Shown here: piece by piece, positions 3,693-28,120 of the stretch
How positions within the stretch are numbered: the stretch's first letter is position 1
How the letters are laid out: every line of letters starts with the position of its first letter
Program-made: the position numbers and the translations under genes
The notes under the pieces: model-generated
What the model was told of the DNA's origin: nothing
The model's database searches: none
Seen by the model: the letters and a program-made list of their open reading frames with translations, nothing else
DNA from: Gammaproteobacteria bacterium
GTDB taxonomy: Bacteria > Pseudomonadota > Gammaproteobacteria > GCA-002705445 > GCA-002716945
Reading direction: 5' to 3'
DNA length: 64,000 nucleotides
Assembly (NCBI GenBank): GCA_018667355.1
Contig: JABIVC010000016.1
Location: forward strand, 175,762-239,761

Positions 3693-5378
3693 ATGAATAA
3701 TTTTGAAAGCTTTAATCTTTCCGAAAATCTAAATTTAGCATTAGCTAAAATGGAATTTTCAAAACCAACACCAATTCAAGCTCAAACTATACCTCTAGCT
3801 TTGCAAGGCAAAGATATTCTCGGTTCAGCACAAACTGGCACTGGTAAAACAGCTGCATTTTGTATACCAATGATTGAAATGTTACTGAGAAATGAAAATA
3901 TGACAGCTTTAATAATGACGCCTACAAGAGAACTTGCAAGGCAGGTTCTAGAGGTTGTTAATCAACTTATGGGTAATAAAACCTCATTGAGAGCAGCATG
4001 TTTGATAGGTGGAGAGGCAATGGGAAAACAGTTAAATCAACTCAGAAAGGCGCCTAGAATTATAGTTGGAACACCTGGAAGAATTAATGATCACCTTGAG
4101 AGTGAAACTTTAGATTTAATGGATTGTGGTTACTTAGTTTTGGATGAAACAGATAGAATGTTGGATATGGGTTTTGGCATACAAATAGATCAAACATTAC
4201 AGTATTTGCCTTCTGAAAAACAAACTTTACTTTTTTCAGCAACACTACCATCTAAGATTATGCAATTGTCTAAAAAATATCTTTATAACCCAGAAAGAAT
4301 TGCTATACAGTCTGATCAAGTTTTGCTAAGTAATATTGATCATGAAATATTGAATATTGATCATAATAAAAAATATGTTGAACTTTTAAGTCAATTGGAG
4401 CAAAGAGAAGGCTCAGTATTAATATTTGCAAAAACAAAACATGGCACACAAAGAATGGCTAAAAATCTAACAAATGATGGATTTAAAGCCGATGCATTAA
4501 ATGGAAACCTAAACCAGAATAAACGCGATAAAGTTATGAATAATTTTAGACTCAAAAAATTTAAAGTTTTAGTTGCAACTGATATTGCATCAAGGGGTTT
4601 AGATGTTGAGCATATCGAACATGTGGTAAATTATGATTTACCTCAAGTAGCTGAAGATTATGTTCATAGAATTGGGAGAACGGGTCGAGCTGGGTTAAAA
4701 GGCTCAACAATCTGTTTCATTTCTCCTGAAGAACAACCATTATGGGAGCAAATTAATTATTTATTAAATCCTAAAACAGCAAAAAAACCTTCAAGTGCAA
4801 GTAAAAATAGTAGATCTTCAAGAAAAAGAAGCAATAGTCAAAATCAATCTACGAAGACTAGAAGAAGCTTTTCTTCAAGCAATGGACCTAGAAGAAGAGG
4901 TAATGAAGGTAATACTGATTCAAGATTACATAGAAATACAAGCACAAGAAGAAGTGCCAATGGAAATACAGTTTCAAGGTCAGCCAGAGACAATAATCAG
5001 CGTAGAGATGCCGAGGGCAACAATATAGCTAAACCATTAAGAGGCAACAGTTCGAGAAGAGCTAATAATGGGTCAAAATCATTTAGAGGGCATAGCAAGA
5101 GAAGAGGAAATGAAGGAAACATGGATTCAAGGCCAACTAGAAGTAGTGCCCCAAGAAGAAGTGCCAATGGAAATACAATTTCAAGGCCAACTAGAAGTAG
5201 TGCCCCAAGAAGAAGTGCCAATGGAAATACAATTTCAAGGCCAACTAGAAGTAGTGCCCCAAGAAGAAGTGCTAATGGAAATACATTCTCTAAGCATACA
5301 AAAGGGTCTGGTCAAAGACGAAATACACCCGGATCAAGAAATAAAACATTAGGTTTGAGACAAGGGAGCAGAAGATAA
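3693..5378 (+). CDS. DEAD-box ATP-dependent RNA helicase (RhlE/DeaD-like) with a ~200 aa Arg/Ser/Asn/Gly-rich repetitive C-terminal tail
   Basis: Q-motif region TPIQAQTIP, motif I AQTGTGKTAAF, Ia PTRELA, TPGR, motif II as DETD (not DEAD), SAT, HRIGRTGRAG. The tail carries 18-aa tandem repeats SRPTRSSAPRRSANGNTI. Confidence 0.9.
   Translation: MNNFESFNLSENLNLALAKMEFSKPTPIQAQTIPLALQGKDILGSAQTGTGKTAAFCIPMIEMLLRNENMTALIMTPTRELARQVLEVVNQLMGNKTSLRAACLIGGEAMGKQLNQLRKAPRIIVGTPGRINDHLESETLDLMDCGYLVLDETDRMLDMGFGIQIDQTLQYLPSEKQTLLFSATLPSKIMQLSKKYLYNPERIAIQSDQVLLSNIDHEILNIDHNKKYVELLSQLEQREGSVLIFAKTKHGTQRMAKNLTNDGFKADALNGNLNQNKRDKVMNNFRLKKFKVLVATDIASRGLDVEHIEHVVNYDLPQVAEDYVHRIGRTGRAGLKGSTICFISPEEQPLWEQINYLLNPKTAKKPSSASKNSRSSRKRSNSQNQSTKTRRSFSSSNGPRRRGNEGNTDSRLHRNTSTRRSANGNTVSRSARDNNQRRDAEGNNIAKPLRGNSSRRANNGSKSFRGHSKRRGNEGNMDSRPTRSSAPRRSANGNTISRPTRSSAPRRSANGNTISRPTRSSAPRRSANGNTFSKHTKGSGQRRNTPGSRNKTLGLRQGSRR
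5133..5294 (+). repeat. Coding 54-bp direct tandem repeat (3 copies, last one degenerate) inside the helicase C-terminal tail; a diverged copy lies near 4945-4985
   Basis: Unit ccaactagaagtagtgccccaagaagaagtgccaatggaaatacaatttcaagg is repeated head-to-tail at 5133, 5187 and 5241. The first two copies are identical and the third diverges near its end. Confidence 0.85.
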
Positions 5379-18206: not shown

Positions 18207-18661
18207 CCACAGCAGCCCATACCAAACTTTTTTAATCTCCAGTAATTATATGGCCATGGAGTTAAAAAACCAGCAGTGAGCATGAATGGGATGACATAGA
18301 GATTTATTTTAGCTCCTCCAGTAATTAGAATATCTGTAATATTCATAGCCAATTCCATGCTGATCATAGAAATAAGACTCATACCAAATGCTGTTTTTAT
18401 TGCAGATTTCAGTTTCATTTGTTTTAACAATATTATTGTTTCAAGTATTATGCTTGAGACTATCCCATTAAACATTGCTAGTGCCATGATTGATAAGGTT
18501 GACCATGGAATTGCATTTACCTGGAAATAATATATTGTCATCATATCTCCGAAGCTACACCCTACCAAACACCAAAATGTATTGATAGCTGACTGACCCC
18601 ATGTATGTTTACATTTCCAGTTAAAGGCATTACTTTTCTTTATCATTATAAATCCAGCCAA
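18203..18661 (-). CDS. Membrane protein, DUF4396-like
   Basis: Hydrophobic 152 aa protein with CLVGCSFGDM, reminiscent of DUF4396. It is the last gene of a 5-gene minus-strand operon. Confidence 0.35.
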   Translation of the reverse strand: MAGFIMIKKSNAFNWKCKHTWGQSAINTFWCLVGCSFGDMMTIYYFQVNAIPWSTLSIMALAMFNGIVSSIILETIILLKQMKLKSAIKTAFGMSLISMISMELAMNITDILITGGAKINLYVIPFMLTAGFLTPWPYNYWRLKKFGMGCCG

Positions 18662-18978
18662 AGTTTTTTAGGTTGTCTCATACCAGCAATTTTACATGCT
18701 TGCTGACCATATCCATAAGGAAATAATTTATAAATATATTTTCTTGTTGATTTATCAGCACCATATTCATTTTTAAAATATTTTAGCAGATATCTTAGTT
18801 CTGGAACTTTTTGGTGTTCATCAAAATACTTTCGAATATACTTTATAACAATCCAATGATTTTTGCTTAACTCAGTCCTGAATTCTTTGGCAACTGTTTC
18901 TGCATGTTGAATATTCCAATCTGATGGATCTAGTAAGAAACCATCACTATCTTTTGCTGGAATGAATACATTATTCAT
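18646..18978 (-). CDS. DsrC/TusE-family protein retaining only the internal cysteine (CysB-like); C-terminal Cys absent
   Basis: MNNVFIPAKDSDGFLLDPSDWNIQHAETVAK...LFPYGYGQQACKIAGMRQPKKLWLDL aligns with bona fide DsrC (…LFPYGPGKQACKFAGLPKPTGCV), but the terminal GCV is replaced. Start taken at the second Met, since the 19002 start would overlap the Rieske gene by 32 nt. Confidence 0.7.
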   Translation of the reverse strand: MNNVFIPAKDSDGFLLDPSDWNIQHAETVAKEFRTELSKNHWIVIKYIRKYFDEHQKVPELRYLLKYFKNEYGADKSTRKYIYKLFPYGYGQQACKIAGMRQPKKLWLDL

Positions 18979-19276
18979 CAATAAAAATATGACCTTTTTC
19001 AATTAAAGTTTTATATGTTATGATTGGCTCGTCAGCTGGTTCATTTAATGCTTTGCCAGATTTTAAGTCAAAATAACTCCCATGCAATGGACATTTTACC
19101 TTAGTTCCATCAAGACATCCCATAGTCAGTTCTGCATCTTCATGAGTACACATATCAGATGTTACATAAATATTATTATCAATCTTTGCAATTAAATAAT
19201 TTTTAGAATTTATAGTTGCCTGAATCATTTCTCCATTCACTATATCATTTACATGTGCAACTTTAACTTTAGCCAT
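18971..19276 (-). CDS. Rieske [2Fe-2S] ferredoxin (small NirD-like protein)
   Basis: CTHEDAELTMGCLDG...CPLHGSYFD matches the CxH...CxxH Rieske motifs. Confidence 0.8.
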   Translation of the reverse strand: MAKVKVAHVNDIVNGEMIQATINSKNYLIAKIDNNIYVTSDMCTHEDAELTMGCLDGTKVKCPLHGSYFDLKSGKALNEPADEPIITYKTLIEKGHIFIDE

Positions 19277-19277
19277 C

Positions 19278-20393
19278 TTATTTTTTGAACCGTTTTAATG
19301 CGCTACCTGAACTCAGTACTTGGTTAACTTCTTTTGAACATGATTCGATACTATTATTAGTAACATGACTTAGAATTATGGTTGCACCATATAAAATACA
19401 GTCTCTCATAACACCATCAGATCCAGACAATGCATCCATTCCCATTTTTAGTGATTCTTTAGCTAAGTCTATTGGATTTACTTTTGTCTCAATTTTGTCA
19501 ATCGAAATATTTTTTTCAAACGAACTTGGTATTGTGACAGCTCGGACTTCTTGTTTAATATTTAAATCTATTTCTGGATTTATTTCTAATAATTCATTTT
19601 CATCTAGTATATTTTTATAATAATAAGCATTAGCCTTCTGTCTTAATGATGGTATTACGCCACCCTCTGTTCCACGAATAACAATTGAAGAATCAAAGTT
19701 TGCATTTCTAGCCAGCATTAAATAAATTGGAGGATATGGTTTATGCACATACCCTGTTACAAAATGATTTCTTTTTGAAATTAATGGGTTTGCTAAAACC
19801 TCTATAGTTGTAACAACAGGCCTTTTAATTATTTCTGTCCTCAGTTCCATTAGATTATTCAGTTGAGGAGAAAAAACTTTTTGGTCTATATAGCCCCAGC
19901 CTATATTTTTATCTTCTATCCTCTCTATAATTTGTTCATGAGTGGAGTACACATCTAATCCTAATAATTTAAAGATAGCATGATGTGTGCAGCCAAACTT
20001 TGGACCTACAGTCTTAACTCCTTGAGAAATAGATGGAATTCCGAGTTCTGCTAGAACGGGTAATATATATGCAGAAGATGGTATGTTTCTTGTAAAACCA
20101 TCATATGGATCAGCAATGTTCACAAGATTATCAACATTAACATCCATCTTTTTGACTGAATTTATCATAGCATCATGGACACCTAGATTTTCATCATGAG
20201 TCTCTCTTTTCATCCTAAGTGCGATTAAAAATATAGCTGAACGTACGTCGCTAATTTCTCCATTCAATATTGCAGACATGGATGCTTTGGCTTCCTCTCT
20301 GCTGATATTTTTACTAAGATCTGGACCAGTTGCTATTCTTTGAATAACTGATTTCATTAGTTCAGATGAAGTTATATTTTTTTTATCGGACAT
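19278..20393 (-). CDS. TrpD2/YbiB-like protein (glycosyltransferase family 3 fold with degenerate anthranilate-PRT active site)
   Basis: N-terminal helical domain ISREEAKASMSAILNGEISDVRSAIFLIALRMKRET matches the TrpD N-terminal domain. The GTGGD/KHGN catalytic motifs are replaced (ADPYDG...KTVGPKFG). Confidence 0.6.
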   Translation of the reverse strand: MSDKKNITSSELMKSVIQRIATGPDLSKNISREEAKASMSAILNGEISDVRSAIFLIALRMKRETHDENLGVHDAMINSVKKMDVNVDNLVNIADPYDGFTRNIPSSAYILPVLAELGIPSISQGVKTVGPKFGCTHHAIFKLLGLDVYSTHEQIIERIEDKNIGWGYIDQKVFSPQLNNLMELRTEIIKRPVVTTIEVLANPLISKRNHFVTGYVHKPYPPIYLMLARNANFDSSIVIRGTEGGVIPSLRQKANAYYYKNILDENELLEINPEIDLNIKQEVRAVTIPSSFEKNISIDKIETKVNPIDLAKESLKMGMDALSGSDGVMRDCILYGATIILSHVTNNSIESCSKEVNQVLSSGSALKRFKK

Positions 20394-20986
20394 TATTTAA
20401 AAACTATCCAAGTTGTTGCTATATATTTAATATCTTTTTTGAGTGTAACACCGCGATGTTCATGAGTCCAAAAAGGAGGAAACAGAATTAACTTTCCTGC
20501 TTCTGGTTTAATCTTTACATTTTGATGTAAAAATTCTGTTTCACCACCTGGGCCTATAACATCATTCAAGTACCAAATAGCAACCATTTGTCTATCACTA
20601 AATTGATGACTCCCGCTATCAATATGCCAGTGAAAAAATTCCCCTGGCTTTGTTCTCTGTACTGCATAACCAATATCTTTAAATGGTCCTGTAAAAAAAT
20701 CAAATTGCTTTTTTACTCCACTTAATGCCTTAGCTAAACTTGTGAAAAGTAAGTCATCAACATCTTTCCAGTTCTCTTTCCCGCTCACAACCATGTCAGT
20801 AGATTTTTTGATATCTAAATTCTCCTCAAATGTTTGTCCTACTCTTCCTTGATAATGATCTTCCTCAGAATCTTCAAATCTATTGATTATATCTAGACAG
20901 TCCTCACTAGAAATACTATTGGAAAATTCAAAAATAAAACTATTAGGTTTGACCTCTATTAATCTTTTGTCTAGCTGAATATCCAA
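20393..20986 (-). CDS. Fe(II)/2-oxoglutarate-dependent oxygenase (prolyl-4-hydroxylase-like superfamily)
   Basis: HWHIDSG (HxD) and distal FWTHEHRG His form a 2-His-1-carboxylate facial triad pattern. Translationally coupled (ATGA overlap) to the TrpD2-like gene. Confidence 0.6.
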   Translation of the reverse strand: MDIQLDKRLIEVKPNSFIFEFSNSISSEDCLDIINRFEDSEEDHYQGRVGQTFEENLDIKKSTDMVVSGKENWKDVDDLLFTSLAKALSGVKKQFDFFTGPFKDIGYAVQRTKPGEFFHWHIDSGSHQFSDRQMVAIWYLNDVIGPGGETEFLHQNVKIKPEAGKLILFPPFWTHEHRGVTLKKDIKYIATTWIVFK

Positions 20987-21068: not shown

Positions 21069-21629
21069 ATGGTAATAAGAATTAAAAGCAATTGGTCCAA
21101 GACCGTTAAACGGGAAAAAACTAGCGAAGATATAGCTAGTGCCTTATCTTATATTGGATGGAAATTATCACTTGATAAAGCGCGTAACCTCCATGGGGAC
21201 GACTTTGATTATTCTTCTGATCATCAGCGCATTACTGTTATCGTAGAATTTATGTCATTTCAGGTACATCTAGCCGATAGACTCTTATATCAGAGTAAAA
21301 AGACAGATGACTATAGAATATCAGTCATGAATAATCTAGGACAACAGTCTGCCAGGATAATGCAAGAAAATTGCGAGGATCTATTTGGCGATGGAAATTA
21401 TAGAGAGGGCTATATCAATACTCTTAATATAAGATCCGGGGAATATTCTCATTATGAATTTACAAAATCATCTGGAAATTATTCTCTTTATCGACATCTA
21501 GCTAAAAAAATACAAGATGCGATGGGATCTAGCCAGACTAATAAATGGGTTATGGACCAGATAGTCGATATAGATGCCGTAGAGATTTGTAAGAAGTTTA
21601 TAGAAGTTTACGAATCTTTAACCAAGTAA
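21069..21629 (+). CDS. Hypothetical protein
   Basis: 186 aa ORF with no motif I recognise. Divergent from the 2OG-oxygenase operon. Confidence 0.4.
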   Translation: MVIRIKSNWSKTVKREKTSEDIASALSYIGWKLSLDKARNLHGDDFDYSSDHQRITVIVEFMSFQVHLADRLLYQSKKTDDYRISVMNNLGQQSARIMQENCEDLFGDGNYREGYINTLNIRSGEYSHYEFTKSSGNYSLYRHLAKKIQDAMGSSQTNKWVMDQIVDIDAVEICKKFIEVYESLTK

Positions 21630-21638
21630 GTTAAACAC

Positions 21639-21833
21639 TTATTTTTTAAAATTTTTTGCGTTATTAATGGTCTTATTCTCGCCATCTTCATAGCCAGCTT
21701 CATAAGCATCACTGAGCCTTTGTTCTTCTATTTTAGGACTATTTTGATAACCTTCTTGCCAGCCTATAATATAATCATCAGACGCATTCATGTCTTCAAG
21801 TTCTGTTACTTTTTTAAAATAATCATTATTCAT
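21639..21833 (-). CDS. Small acidic hypothetical protein (64 aa)
   Basis: Last ORF of a tightly coupled minus-strand operon (ATGA overlap with the upstream 74 aa ORF). Confidence 0.35.
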   Translation of the reverse strand: MNNDYFKKVTELEDMNASDDYIIGWQEGYQNSPKIEEQRLSDAYEAGYEDGENKTINNAKNFKK

Positions 21834-22057
21834 TATGTTCTTATAGACCCCTTTAGTTCATGTGCAATGTCTACCAGACGGTTGGCTAACTTCTCATGCG
21901 TTTCTTTATATTCTTTTACAATGCCCACTGGATTTAAATGGATGTCTTTCTCGGTAACGCCAGTACTTCTCTCAAGCTCCATAAACTCTTTTTGAATTCT
22001 TAATAATGTCGCAATTATAGTTTTTCTTTCTTCTTCTAGTTTTTTAATATCACTCAT
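21833..22057 (-). CDS. Small coiled-coil hypothetical protein (74 aa)
   Basis: Predicted helical/coiled-coil protein (KLEEERKTIIATLLRIQKEFMELER). Its start overlaps the stop of the RspA-like gene. Confidence 0.4.
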   Translation of the reverse strand: MSDIKKLEEERKTIIATLLRIQKEFMELERSTGVTEKDIHLNPVGIVKEYKETHEKLANRLVDIAHELKGSIRT

Positions 22058-22407
22058 TAGTATCCACCTTTTCTCCTACTTTCTGGCAAGCCACCTATTC
22101 TACCAGCTTGTTTACTAGGATTACCAGGAAATAAGTCGAATAATGTTTTAGTATCAATTTTTTCACCCCACAACTTTCCTAAATCTTTGACCATGTTTCT
22201 AGTATTAGGCTGATTTTCTTTGTTATTGATGAACTCGTCTCTTAGGTAGTTAATTACGTCCCAGTGCCTTTCTGTTAGTTCTATTTCCTCTTGTATCGCA
22301 ATAACTTTGGCTATATCTTCATTCCAGTCTTCGAGCTTAACTAGAAAGCCTGTTTCAGATGTTTCGATTAATTGACCATTTACCTCTACTTTCATTGGAA
22401 GCTCCAT
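22057..22407 (-). CDS. DsrC/TusE-family protein lacking both conserved cysteines (RspA-like)
   Basis: MELPMKVEVNGQLIETSETGFLVKLEDWNEDIAK...DLFPGNPSKQAGRIGGLPESRRKGGY is collinear with DsrC, but CysB is Gly and the C-terminal GCV is GGY. Confidence 0.75.
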   Translation of the reverse strand: MELPMKVEVNGQLIETSETGFLVKLEDWNEDIAKVIAIQEEIELTERHWDVINYLRDEFINNKENQPNTRNMVKDLGKLWGEKIDTKTLFDLFPGNPSKQAGRIGGLPESRRKGGY

Positions 22408-22480
22408 CTAATCCTGATTTTTATATATGAAAATTCTAATATACTAGGAGAAATATGTCCATATTGATTTTGACTAATAG

Positions 22481-23149
22481 TTAGTCTTCTTTGAAGTTTG
22501 GGACCGCATCTATTGACTTATGAGGTAACAATATTCCACATCCGTAAATTCTGCCACCTCCAATGCCTAAATCTTGAAGAAGTATAGAGTGTTCTTTAGA
22601 TAAATCAGCAATCATGAGGCTTCTTGTAAATTTATGTTTTCCCATTAAAATTATACTTTTTGTTTTGCCACATATAGCTTTTTTTATATGTATTCCATGC
22701 ACACTCAACTGATTTTTAATTTCTAATAGAAAATTTTCTTCTGTTTGATCAGGATCACAGAGAACAGATCTACAAATCAAATCTTTGACAACAAGGAATG
22801 GTTTCACAATAGATATGCCAATTTTTATATCATTTTTTAAAACATTTAGAGTAGAGCCTTCTATTAGCCGCACCTTATCAATATCAGTTTTAGGAATTCT
22901 TAATATAAGTCTAGTTCTTTTGGATAAAAATATTTGATCTTTTTCAGAGCGAACCCAACCATTCCCAAAATCAGGCCCATGAAGAGTATGAACACCGATA
23001 GATTTGTTTTCTAGCATCCAAGGAGCTAGATTAGTTATAGCATTTGATAATTCTGAAACATGGTCATATGGTAATATCTTACATTCAATTTTAAATGCAA
23101 CATCTGCCATCATAGATTTTTCTTCTACCTTTTCTTCTTCTTCCCACAT
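22481..23149 (-). CDS. Protein with Cas6e(CasE)-like C-terminal glycine-rich loop; putative RAMP/RRM-fold RNA-binding protein, no CRISPR context
   Basis: C-terminus SILLQDLGIGGGRIYGCGILLPHKS closely parallels the E. coli CasE C-terminus ALIDLVQQGIGPAKSMGCGLLSLAPL (G-rich loop GhG-x5-GCG-hL). An N-terminal PYDH motif is a possible catalytic-His region. Acidic N-terminal extension; the true start may be the MMADV Met. Confidence 0.45.
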   Translation of the reverse strand: MWEEEEKVEEKSMMADVAFKIECKILPYDHVSELSNAITNLAPWMLENKSIGVHTLHGPDFGNGWVRSEKDQIFLSKRTRLILRIPKTDIDKVRLIEGSTLNVLKNDIKIGISIVKPFLVVKDLICRSVLCDPDQTEENFLLEIKNQLSVHGIHIKKAICGKTKSIILMGKHKFTRSLMIADLSKEHSILLQDLGIGGGRIYGCGILLPHKSIDAVPNFKED

Positions 23150-23151
23150 AA

Positions 23152-23343
23152 TTATTTAATATAACTACTAAAAGCTGACTCTATTTTATCTTCCCAGTTT
23201 TCTGGTGTATCTGGGAATGGGGGTTTTAAATCAATCCTTATGAAAATTTCACCGTCTTTAGCTCTAATTTTAACTACTTCTAATAGCTCCTTAAAAGTTT
23301 CAATATCTTTTTCGTCTATAAGTAAACTGCTTAAATATAACAT
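23152..23343 (-). CDS. Small hypothetical protein (63 aa)
   Basis: Coupled on both sides, between the TauD-like and Cas6e-like genes. Confidence 0.35.
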   Translation of the reverse strand: MLYLSSLLIDEKDIETFKELLEVVKIRAKDGEIFIRIDLKPPFPDTPENWEDKIESAFSSYIK

Positions 23344-24191
23344 TACACTTCCATTCTCTTTTTAGATCTTAATCTATATAGGAGCCTATTCTTTTTTTCC
23401 AAATTTGTAAACGGTGTACGCATATGGATAACATTATTTGTTATAACGCCCTGCCCCTCTGTGAATTTATGTGTAATGTGGTATTCATCAGAATTATTAA
23501 CAATATTTTTTAGATTACTTGCAGCTTTTTGGGATTTATCATTCCACAATATATTTTTCTCTCTCATAGTGAATTTCATATGTAATTTGCCATTAATGAA
23601 TGAGAATATAGGACTGTCAACAGCCTTTCTCTGAGTGTGTGTATTTTCAGGGATTGTATATGTGTTATGTAACATTAAATCACTAATATTATTATAAGCT
23701 TCATTAAATAATATATATGCTATTTCATGATCCATATATTTATTCATACCACCACTTTCAGATTGTGTTCTACAGAATAAAATCCATGAGAGTATAAGGT
23801 TTTCATTATTATTATAATATCCATCCGTATGCCAATTCAGTTTTTTATTTGTATATGGAATATATTCAGCGTTTGATTGATGTTTACTGTGAATTTTGAT
23901 CTCTGTTAGGCCATCATCATCTGATTTTGAGTCTATCTCATAATTACCAAGTCCAATTTGGGACCCCATGATTTTTATGGCTGCTTTTAAATCCGTGGCT
24001 TCTTTATCTATCTGAAAAAAGACAATATTATGCTGATTTATTATGTTAGACATATATGTTTTTTCAGGTTTGGTAAGGGAGCTGGGATTGTTAATTTCCA
24101 CAATTAAATCATCGATTTTATTGGAAAATCTCTCTAGTTTTTTATCAGCCCAGAGTTTATAATCATTTCTAGGAATCTCAAGTATGTTCAT
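23343..24191 (-). CDS. TauD/TfdA-family Fe(II)/2-oxoglutarate dioxygenase
   Basis: WHTDGYY (HxD of the facial triad, as in TauD WHTD) and C-terminal ...NNVIHMRTPF (distal His and Arg that binds 2OG). First gene of the operon, divergent from dsrA. Confidence 0.6.
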   Translation of the reverse strand: MNILEIPRNDYKLWADKKLERFSNKIDDLIVEINNPSSLTKPEKTYMSNIINQHNIVFFQIDKEATDLKAAIKIMGSQIGLGNYEIDSKSDDDGLTEIKIHSKHQSNAEYIPYTNKKLNWHTDGYYNNNENLILSWILFCRTQSESGGMNKYMDHEIAYILFNEAYNNISDLMLHNTYTIPENTHTQRKAVDSPIFSFINGKLHMKFTMREKNILWNDKSQKAASNLKNIVNNSDEYHITHKFTEGQGVITNNVIHMRTPFTNLEKKNRLLYRLRSKKRMEV

Positions 24192-24322
24192 TGGATTTAA
24201 TGCCTATTTAGTACTTGTAAGTTATTTTAAATAAATGCTATATTGTTTATCCATAGACATATATTAGTAAATAATGATAATATAATAAACATTATATATC
24301 ATAAATAGCGGGGAGCTATACA

Positions 24323-25576
24323 TTGAAAAAGCACGATACACCAATGTTAGATGAACTAGAAAACGGGCCATGGCCTAGTTTTATTAGTGGGATTAAGAGA
24401 CTAAGAGACTCTCATCCTGAAGAAAGAATTAATGAAATGACAAATGACTTATTGGGTCAATTAGAACATTCATATGAGACAAGAAAAGGTTATTGGAAAG
24501 GCGGTACTGTAAGTGTTTATGGTTATGGCGGCGGAATAATACCTCGTTTCTCAGAGGTAGGTGATGCGTTTCCTAAATCTAAAGAATTTCATACACTACG
24601 CGTACAACCTCCTGCTGGGAATTTCTATACAACGGACATACTTAGAAAAATGGCTGATAGCTGGGAAAAATATGGCTCAGGGTTAGTTACTTTTCATGGC
24701 CAAACTGGAAATATTATGTTTATAGGGTCAACTTCTGATGCTACCCAACATTTTTTTGACGAAATCAATGAATATGGTTTTGATTTAGGTGGAGCTGGAC
24801 CATGCGTTAGAACAGCAATGTCATGTGTTGGTGCTGGAAGATGTGAAATGTCCAACATCAATGAACATAAAGCTCATAGGTTGCTAGTAAATAATTTTAT
24901 AGATGATATGCATAGACCTGCATTACCATATAAATTTAAATTCAAGGTTTCTGGATGTGCAAATGATTGTATGAATTCTATTGAAAGAGCAGACATGTCA
25001 ATTATTGGGACATGGAGAGATGACATTAAAATTGACCAAAAAGAATTTAAAGAATATGTTGAATTAAAAGGAAGAAAGCATGTAATAGATAATATTATTA
25101 CAAGGTGCCCAACAAATGCTATTTCTCTAAACGATGATGATACAGTGTCTATAGATAATCAAAATTGCGTAAAATGTATGCATTGCTTAAATGTAGTTCC
25201 AAAAGCTCTTCATCCTGGTGATGATAAGGGAGCTACTGTATTAATGGGTGGTAAAAGAACTCTTAAAATTGGTGACTTAATGGGAACTGTGATTGTCCCA
25301 TTTATGAAACTAGAATCACAAGAAGACTGGGATAGGCTAGTTGAAATTGCTGAGGAATCAATAGATTTCTGGGCAGATAATGCTCTTGAGCATGAAAGAT
25401 GTGGTGAGATGATTGAAAGAATCGGCCTTGTAAACTTTTTAGAAGGCATAGGAATTGATGTAGATCCAAATATGGTTGGAAATCCAAGGGAATCTAGTTA
25501 TTTTAGAGGTGATGGATGGGACGGCGAAGCAGTCAAGTGGTATGAACGCGCAGATGCGGATAAGGATTCTGCTTAA
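24323..25576 (+). CDS. dsrA: Dissimilatory sulfite reductase alpha subunit (reverse/oxidative type)
   Basis: TTG start at 24323 (RBS GGGAG 7 nt upstream) gives MKKHDTPMLDELENGPWPSFISG, collinear with DsrA N-termini. Sirohaem and [4Fe-4S] Cys clusters (CVGAGRC...C) and ferredoxin-like CPTNA...C. Confidence 0.9.
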   Translation: MKKHDTPMLDELENGPWPSFISGIKRLRDSHPEERINEMTNDLLGQLEHSYETRKGYWKGGTVSVYGYGGGIIPRFSEVGDAFPKSKEFHTLRVQPPAGNFYTTDILRKMADSWEKYGSGLVTFHGQTGNIMFIGSTSDATQHFFDEINEYGFDLGGAGPCVRTAMSCVGAGRCEMSNINEHKAHRLLVNNFIDDMHRPALPYKFKFKVSGCANDCMNSIERADMSIIGTWRDDIKIDQKEFKEYVELKGRKHVIDNIITRCPTNAISLNDDDTVSIDNQNCVKCMHCLNVVPKALHPGDDKGATVLMGGKRTLKIGDLMGTVIVPFMKLESQEDWDRLVEIAEESIDFWADNALEHERCGEMIERIGLVNFLEGIGIDVDPNMVGNPRESSYFRGDGWDGEAVKWYERADADKDSA

Positions 25577-27787: not shown

Positions 27788-28120
27788 ATGCCTATAGAAG
27801 TAAACGGAAAATCTTTTGAAACAGATGAAGAAGGGTATCTAGCCGATCTTAGCCTCTGGGAAAAAGACTTAGCTACAGCAATGGCTAAAGAAGATGATAT
27901 TGAACTTGGTGATGATCACTGGGAAATTATTAATTTTCTTCGTGAATACTATGAGGAGTATCAAATAGCCCCAGCTGTTAGGGTATTAACAAAGGCTGTT
28001 GGTAAAAAACTTGGCAAAGATAAAGGTAATAGTAAATACTTATATGAGCTATTCCCATATGGTCCAGGTAAACAAGCATGTAAATTTGCAGGGCTTCCAA
28101 AACCAACTGGTTGCGTATAA
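27788..28120 (+). CDS. dsrC: Sulfur carrier DsrC (both reactive cysteines present)
   Basis: C-terminus GKQACKFAGLPKPTGCV with CysB and penultimate CysA; 110 aa. Confidence 0.9.
   Translation: MPIEVNGKSFETDEEGYLADLSLWEKDLATAMAKEDDIELGDDHWEIINFLREYYEEYQIAPAVRVLTKAVGKKLGKDKGNSKYLYELFPYGPGKQACKFAGLPKPTGCV

Follow-up and report, generated by a model that had tools for sequence, protein, structure and literature searches.

Abundant marine bacteria and symbionts oxidize sulfur by way of the reverse dissimilatory sulfite reductase (Dsr) pathway, several steps of which are unresolved, as is their control. Some of the genes around dsrA are already on record. According to the passage of PMC7596348 that deals with it, a tauD-like gene that adjoins dsrA on its upstream side and is transcribed the other way carries the name dsrQ, after Lenk et al. 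2012; the same passage places dsrQ mainly in (facultatively) aerobic chemotrophic sulfur oxidizers and reports a speculation that it acts in sulfonate cleavage, and PMC6018796 enters DsrQ as a protein of unknown function. DsrC, TusE and RspA make up a recognized family (PMC8477390), and an Alvin_2107 homologue has been counted among the sulfur-oxidation genes of the nematode symbiont Ca. Thiosymbion oneisti (PMC8269255). Here we analyse a cluster of six minus-strand genes divergent from dsrA in a 64,000-nucleotide (nt) stretch of a gammaproteobacterial genome (contig JABIVC010000016.1; hereafter the window), in which dsrQ is combined with genes for a Cas6 homologue, a Cys-less DsrC paralogue, an Alvin_2107-family protein and two further small proteins.

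The locus agrees with the reported dsrQ arrangement in that a TauD-family gene lies directly upstream of dsrA and points away from it, here and in the relatives of this genome, as described for chemotrophic sulfur oxidizers. It differs in the company that the gene keeps: the passage of PMC7596348 names dsrQ alone, and not orf63, the Cas6-like gene, the Cys-less DsrC-like gene, orf74 or the Alvin_2107-family gene. The original prediction had known of no described system with this composition. That no longer applies to dsrQ, which already had its name, or to the last small open reading frame (ORF), which falls into the curated Alvin_2107 family, but it does apply to the Cas6-like member: we found no paper mentioning a Cas6 homologue beside dsr in a literature search whose coverage excluded several key papers (Lenk 2012, Weissgerber 2013/2014). 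What this search returned on Cas6 and dsr together were genome papers with ordinary CRISPR loci, and reviews of CRISPR exaptation were silent on a dsr-linked Cas6. As an accessory module of oxidative Dsr, the cluster has been described in part. We consider it fairly probable that it represents a conserved accessory neighbourhood of the oxidative (reverse) enzyme, probably arranged as two transcription units, whose Cas6-like member has departed from CRISPR and whose products would aid or control the reductase, rDsrAB. The features concerned are the following.

23343-24191, minus strand: dsrQ, TauD/TfdA-family Fe(II)/2-oxoglutarate (2OG) dioxygenase, 282 amino acids (aa), PF02668
23152-23343, minus strand: orf63, small acidic protein, 63 aa, constant partner upstream of the Cas6-like gene
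22481-23149, minus strand: Cas6-like protein of the PF09559 / Cmx6 type, 222 aa, without CRISPR association
22433-22461, minus strand: predicted internal sigma-70-type promoter, conserved (-35 TGGACA, 17-nt spacer, -10 TAGAAT; promoter scan)
22057-22407, minus strand: Cys-less DsrC/TusE/RspA-family paralogue, 116 aa as listed, PF04358 and TIGR03342
21833-22057, minus strand: orf74, conserved helical protein, 74 aa, with orthologues at the same position
21639-21833, minus strand: Alvin_2107-family small protein, 64 aa, NCBIfam NF049856
24192-24322, no strand: divergent dsrQ-dsrA control region, 131 nt, with a dsrA promoter-like site at 24254-24281 (plus strand)

On the other side of the control region dsrA starts at 24323 on the plus strand and is followed by dsrB, dsrEFH, dsrC, dsrMKLJOP, dsrN and dsrR. 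The six minus-strand ORFs of the original prediction are all present in the ORF list at these positions, as are the motifs it had named (WHTD and H.R in the oxygenase, a glycine-rich loop, and the loss of both DsrC cysteines). The ratio of nonsynonymous to synonymous divergence (dN/dS) is 0.03-0.14 for all six genes against their orthologues in L001, a marine relative (individual genes: DsrC-like 0.03, orf74 0.06); synonymous sites approach saturation when more distant genomes are compared. These values indicate purifying selection, which marks the three small ORFs as real genes.

Gene order is preserved well beyond the immediate relatives. Scanning species-level genomes with the Cas6-like alignment and two clade-specific peptide patterns identified 37 loci, and dozens of such genomes keep the order found here. 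On those contigs of the marine relatives (L001-L029) that are long enough to show it, dsrC-dsrE-dsrB-dsrA faces TauD-orf63-Cas6-DsrC-like-orf74-Alvin_2107-(hyp186, on the opposite strand)-2OG oxygenase-YbiB-like-Rieske, with Cas6 identities running from 82% down to 46%. The same core is present in L034-L037, L038, L039, L047, L048, L049, L050 and L051, and was found in Acidiferrobacter-, Chromatiales- and Sulfuricaulis-type genomes as well as on other long contigs. In a library-wide search the relatives of the Cas6-like protein fall into 698 clusters at 50% identity; the genes of four remote representatives, which share 29-38% of residues with the window protein, adjoin dsrA without exception (4/4). 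By family HMMs, the most reduced version of the cluster (L052, 2133-6318) has dsrA opposite a DUF6967 small ORF, a Cas6-like gene whose product is 29% identical to the window protein, hyp186-like and Alvin_2107-like genes, TusA, a cytochrome c and FccB (flavocytochrome c sulfide dehydrogenase), and contains neither a TauD-like nor a DsrC-like gene. Because dN/dS stays at 0.03-0.14 and the gene order recurs in dozens of genomes, the arrangement is more than chance. The original prediction had tied its case to the set being kept as a unit beside dsrA, which it is in marine and distant genomes, and had allowed that the 222-aa and 282-aa proteins might belong to unrelated housekeeping families; profile searches place them in the Cas6 and TauD families. 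An accessory set around dsrA that is both conserved and strongly selected offers concrete genetic targets.

Judged by sequence and modelled fold, the 222-aa protein is a genuine Cas6 homologue of the PF09559 / Cmx6 / type I-B kind, and not Cas6e. It matches PF09559 (E 1.4e-48, 165.9 bits, cut-off 26.7) and several PADLOC Cas6 models (E 1.8e-55), and passes TIGR02807 (type I-MYXAN Cas6/Cmx6) by a margin of 2 bits (101 bits against a cut-off of 98.85). Its sole solved sequence relative is 8fcj_B (E 2.8e-15), the Cas6 of a type I-B CAST Cascade. The AlphaFold2 (AF2) model comprises two ferredoxin-like domains, each with the order beta-alpha-beta-beta-alpha-beta, and in a Foldseek comparison this model aligned with 8fcu_B/8fcj_B at a template-modelling (TM) score of 0.70, against ~0.5 for other Cas6 structures; Cse3/Cas6e structures ranked ninth or lower (TM ~0.45, E 1e-4). 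No Cas6e model of Pfam, NCBIfam or PADLOC was matched. The protein thus has the curated-model membership, the two ferredoxin-like (RNA-recognition motif, RRM) domains and the C-terminal glycine-rich loop expected of Cas6, and is accompanied by neither a CRISPR array nor further cas genes in the loci examined. With Cas6e/Cse3 it has the general RAMP fold and the loop in common, and the structural match is distant; its closest match in sequence and structure lies outside that group. The label 'Cas6e-like' first given to it was therefore right about the family and the loop and wrong about the subtype.

Comparison with Cas6 of types I-B and I-MYXAN (Cmx6; 8FCJ/8FCU chain B) brings out both the kinship and the distance. 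PF09559 membership, the two-ferredoxin-like fold and a GxGxxRxxGCG loop are common to both; in the window protein the loop, conserved among its relatives, reads GIGGGRIYGCG (G195-G205). Unlike type I-B Cas6, the protein occurs without an array, Cas5/7/8 or adaptation genes, has a constant 63-aa partner and a dsrA neighbourhood, and is of near-neutral isoelectric point (pI; mostly 5.6-7.8 among orthologues). Residues D29-H30, at the start of helix 1, are invariant in the clade, as are two clade-specific motifs, an HGPxSGNGW insert and a PHKSIDAV tail, which have no counterpart in the solved type I-B Cas6. Both fall in low-confidence regions of the AF2 model and look like partner-binding surfaces.

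The window yielded no CRISPR arrays or repeat-like elements by TRF, direct-repeat search or Rfam, where the CRISPR-repeat (DR) families gave no match even at E <= 5, and across its 64 kb no tRNA, rRNA or other Rfam family reached the gathering score. A k-mer spacing scan over 785 kb (window and loci) found no CRISPR-like spacing, none of 43 loci scanned contained an array, and no cas gene besides the Cas6-like one was present in the window or the examined loci. Searching plasmids with the Cas6-like protein by tblastn gave no match. Apart from five loci considered below, its neighbours are dsr and accessory genes. It is strongly indicated that the clade consists of true Cas6-fold homologues that have departed from CRISPR and are tied to dsrAB, and the protein looks like a component of a defence system taken over by energy metabolism.

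The opposite view, that this is an orphan cas6 left near dsr by chance as a CRISPR-Cas system decayed, could appeal to the databases, which annotate the protein as 'type I-MYXAN CRISPR-associated Cas6/Cmx6', and to TIGR02807, passed by 2 bits. It is effectively refuted by the dN/dS of the gene (0.10-0.17), by a place beside dsrA kept down to 29% Cas6 identity, by the invariant motifs of the clade, and by the failure to find an array or another cas gene in the window and loci. Array-less CRISPR derivatives, namely the Streptomyces type I-E plus STAND systems and haloarchaeal HRAMP (PMC8730458), likewise keep cas-derived genes without an array or adaptation module; these, however, have kept several of the effector subunits and their predicted role is in defence, whereas here a single Cas6 homologue sits in an energy-metabolism locus. 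A lone RAMP protein in a non-defence role, without other cas genes, would be an unusual case for CRISPR evolution. The automatic CRISPR label on this family inflates CRISPR counts in sulfur oxidizers and hides a probable exaptation.

The Cas6-like gene is most closely bound to orf63: the two stand alone in five loci (L030-L033 and the L041 group) and are therefore the tightest pair of the set; together they appear to form an undescribed, mis-annotated and CRISPR-independent branch of Cas6. Neither orf63 nor orf74 matches a Pfam or NCBIfam family, and the AF2 model of the orf63 product is a confident small alpha/beta structure with no informative fold match. An identity of orf63 with the DUF6967 small ORF of L052 was considered and dismissed, no relation being detectable (hhalign probability 3%). 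Some NCBI records label the 63-aa protein 'sulfur relay protein DsrC' despite no match to the DsrC family, probably a propagated misannotation. In several lineages, though not in the window, a gene of 232-235 aa without a Pfam match is inserted between orf63 and the Cas6-like gene (L034 2986-3690; L047 8283-8990; L049 7289-7996; L050 7219-7917). At the same place in L041 (10263-10381) a 79-nt loop is flanked by a perfect inverted repeat of 20 nt; the related L042 lacks this repeat, which is hence lineage-specific and looks like a small mobile insertion rather than a conserved element.

Retention of the Cas6 fold raises the prospect of sulfur-linked RNA processing or modification, in which the Cas6-like protein would recognize, and perhaps cut, a hairpin in an mRNA or small RNA, with the dioxygenases and the YbiB-like protein acting on nucleic acid. 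We regard this as possible, though on balance unlikely. An intact glycine-rich loop, the invariant D29-H30 at helix 1 and strong purifying selection all accord with it, and the YbiB/TrpD2 family, which includes the 371-aa neighbour, has members deposited as DNA-binding. On the other hand, the search for a candidate RNA came up empty: the window contains no DR-like element at E <= 5 and no Rfam family, its only sizeable gap is a predicted promoter and not a conserved hairpin, and the dsr operon is tightly packed. A pI of 5.6-7.8, where most orthologues lie, is atypical of strong RNA binders, and in L052 the sulfur-trafficking gene TusA and the sulfur-oxidation gene FccB share the orientation of the Cas6-like gene. 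A conserved RNA structure upstream of dsrQ was also sought and rejected, the local folds being weak and not conserved. An equally tentative synthesis would have the clade leave CRISPR long ago and become a core accessory of oxidative DsrAB among sulfur-oxidizing Pseudomonadota while still binding or cutting a dedicated structured RNA with its 63-aa partner, thereby setting dsr expression or coupling RNA to sulfur trafficking. If an RNA-active Cas6 were indeed at work here, energy metabolism would have its first domesticated Cas6.

The fourth gene of the cluster encodes, as predicted, a paralogue of the DsrC/TusE/RspA superfamily that has lost both reactive cysteines. Its product matches PF04358 over its full length, like DsrC (E 4.5e-32, 111 bits), and TIGR03342 (97 bits, cut-off 53.5), and its best match in the PDB is A. 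vinosum DsrC (1yx3, E 7e-22). DsrC in the strict sense carries a penultimate CysA and, ten residues upstream, CysB; both positions are Gly in 35/35 aligned orthologues, and in the window the tail reads ...KQAGRIGGLPESRRKGGY, ending RRKGGY. The genuine dsrC, of which this gene is a paralogue, lies at 27788-28120, and its product keeps both cysteines. With both replaced by Gly, the DsrC-like protein cannot form the DsrC trisulfide or persulfide. Its tail NPSKQAGRIGGLPESRRKGGY is near-invariant across orders, as far out as the Acidiferrobacter and Chromatiales relatives, and nonsynonymous divergence is very low (pN 0.03-0.09), which fits a very conserved docking partner. Most likely the protein, with its DsrC body and near-invariant arm, would dock at the DsrC site of DsrAB or its partners without carrying sulfur. 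Within the family, the RspA subgroup comprises Cys-less members with a regulatory (DNA-binding) role. In A. vinosum, Alvin_1508, one of four further DsrC-family genes, groups with the dsr genes (PMC11267869) and is at most a candidate orthologue of the window protein.

Downstream, orf74 has orthologues at the same position in the marine relatives and in L034, L036, L038, L048 and L051. The 64-aa product of the last gene matches NF049856, 'Alvin_2107 family globule sulfur oxidation protein' (82.5 bits, cut-off 60), as an ordinary member with no specific difference, and genes of this family recur close to dsr in distantly related genomes, L052 among them.

Of the five junctions that six genes make, three overlap by 1 nt (TAATG), a fourth has a 2-nt spacer, and the fifth, between the Cas6-like and DsrC-like genes, is a gap of 73 nt. 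The exceptional gap had been noted correctly, while the tight junctions number four of five and not the 'five of six' once counted. The DsrC-like gene probably begins at ATG 22395 (112 aa) rather than at the listed 116-aa start, because gene callers use it, it is the conserved start of the alignment and a GGAG Shine-Dalgarno sequence lies upstream; the gap is then 85 nt. Among 14 orthologous gaps, T-GAC and AGTATATTAGA-TT-T are invariant and the stretch between them varies, the window version being TGGACA, 17 nt, TAGAAT. Since the hexamers are invariant and the spacer variable, the element is predicted to be a promoter, of the sigma-70 type and constant across species, and a repeat-like hairpin in the gap, which had been entertained, can be dismissed on the same grounds. 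This predicted, conserved promoter makes two transcription units likelier than one: the single six-gene operon originally proposed has its gene set and four tight junctions in its favour, but the invariant -35/-10 pair in the gap suggests that the 'operon' is probably divided.

The cluster and the dsr operon have a control region in common: within the 131-nt spacer, the core TAGACwTATATTAGaAAATAATGATAATATAATAAAC is conserved in those marine relatives where both genes are present (23 of L001-L029). The two promoters may also be related to each other. The motif TATATTAGWAWWT occurs at only two sites in the 64 kb, 22431-22443 (minus) at the internal promoter and 24260-24272 (plus) at the dsrA promoter, against 0.27 expected and with 4/100 shuffles reaching two, the motif having been defined after the two sites were seen and in AT-rich DNA. 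The pair recurs in several relatives, both promoter fragments carry TATATTAGAA, and the GC-rich distant loci showed no shared motif. TATATTAGWAWWT may be an operator common to both promoters, and, with the predicted internal promoter, it provides a testable handle on dsr regulation.

These features bear on a further possibility, that the cluster is a regulatory module for dsr, in which the Cys-less DsrC paralogue binds the dsrA and internal promoters through a helix-turn-helix-like part of its DsrC fold and the dioxygenases supply an O2 signal. In its favour are the control region common with dsrA, the single TATATTAGWAWWT site at each promoter with its recurrence in relatives, and the occurrence of dsrQ in aerobic chemotrophs reported in the passage of PMC7596348. 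We find it rather unlikely. The motif was defined post hoc in AT-rich DNA, and a shared motif was not seen among the GC-rich distant loci; a promoter this close to consensus points to strong expression, uncommon in repressors and activators; and the most conserved part of the DsrC-like protein is its C-terminal arm, which is irrelevant to DNA binding. Grimm et al. in 2010 reportedly found that A. vinosum DsrC binds DNA upstream of dsrA, a point that we count for a regulatory role.

The dsrQ product is a member of the TauD/TfdA family, as first proposed, and by its sequence relationships a distant one. It matches PF02668 (E 6e-15, 56.3 bits, cut-off 27) and contains W120-H121-T122-D123 and H256-x-R258; the H121-x-D123...H256 iron triad is invariant in 32 DsrQ orthologues together with R269/R273/R275, so that both the HxD...H triad and the 2OG-binding Arg of the family are in place. 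Profile searches found its nearest solved relatives in TmpA and gamma-butyrobetaine hydroxylase, with weak matches (E 1e-5 to 1e-3), and the NCBIfam result agrees with this kinship. A single-sequence search of the PDB with DsrQ gave no match, and TauD itself was not matched in the profile search either. This weighs on the proposal that the locus serves organosulfonate use, with DsrQ as a taurine/sulfonate dioxygenase freeing sulfite for the Dsr/Apr pathway. Membership of the TauD family and an intact active site would suit such an activity, and the speculation is reported in the passage of PMC7596348; DsrQ is, however, not close to TauD, the only solved relatives that the profile search found are the TmpA/gamma-butyrobetaine hydroxylases, and all the other conserved genes would be left unexplained. 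We consider this role very improbable.

We therefore return to an accessory neighbourhood of rDsrAB as the reading that we favour. Unit 1 (dsrQ-orf63-cas6-like) would be driven from the dsrA/dsrQ control region and unit 2 (dsrC-like-orf74-Alvin_2107) by its own promoter in the 73-nt gap, with hyp186, the prolyl-4-hydroxylase (P4H)-like oxygenase, the YbiB-like protein, the Rieske protein and a second DsrC paralogue as parts of the same conserved set. The products may be stoichiometric helpers of sulfur delivery to rDsrAB, or of its control, in oxygen-exposed sulfur oxidizers. DsrQ would be a catalytically competent, O2- and 2OG-dependent hydroxylase of a small molecule or protein; the reported occurrence of dsrQ in aerobic chemotrophs (in the passage of PMC7596348) and two O2-dependent oxygenases close together point to an oxygen-related role. 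The Cas6-like protein and orf63, joined in the deepest lineages by hyp186 and the Alvin_2107 protein, would form a binding module whose ligand may be structured RNA or protein. That the set serves or controls rDsrAB is, like every functional step in this account, something that we infer.

Several further points weigh against this account. The loci were collected with two clade-specific patterns, and their contexts are all from Pseudomonadota, mostly Gammaproteobacteria. In the five loci where the orf63-Cas6-like pair stands alone, it lies away from dsr, among housekeeping genes. The transcription units are predicted from sequence only, and the divergent arrangement with TATATTAGWAWWT at both promoters fits a regulatory role at least as well. 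Finally, the glycine-rich loop, which binds RNA in canonical Cas6, has been retained, and a role in RNA could be the main one.

Beyond the six genes, the neighbouring members of the set are these.

21069-21629, plus strand: hyp186, convergent with the array, member of the conserved set by synteny and homologues
20393-20986, minus strand: P4H-like 2OG oxygenase (Pfam/NCBIfam; PDB match to a bacterial P4H)
19278-20393, minus strand: YbiB/TrpD2-like protein, 371 aa (Pfam/NCBIfam; PDB match to YbiB)
18971-19276, minus strand: Rieske ferredoxin (Pfam/NCBIfam)
18646-19002, minus strand: second DsrC paralogue, keeping CysB only (Pfam/NCBIfam)

hyp186 is present in all marine relatives and has homologues in L034-L036, L038, L048 and L049; in L052 a homologue lies directly downstream of the Cas6-like gene (BLASTP E 9e-12; HMM synteny). 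The tight array of 2OG oxygenase, YbiB-like and Rieske genes (18971-20986) is, like the second DsrC paralogue, syntenic in the marine relatives, L038 and L048, and in the latter two it is joined by a GNAT acetyltransferase and DUF6866. The second DsrC paralogue ends in KKLWLDL, and its listed ORF overlaps the Rieske gene by 32 nt, its true start probably lying further downstream. Elsewhere in the window, the ORF at 3693-5378 encodes a DEAD-box RNA helicase and contains three near-identical 54-nt tandem copies (5126-5285, plus strand), so that the C-terminal tail of the enzyme repeats a stretch rich in Arg and Ser.

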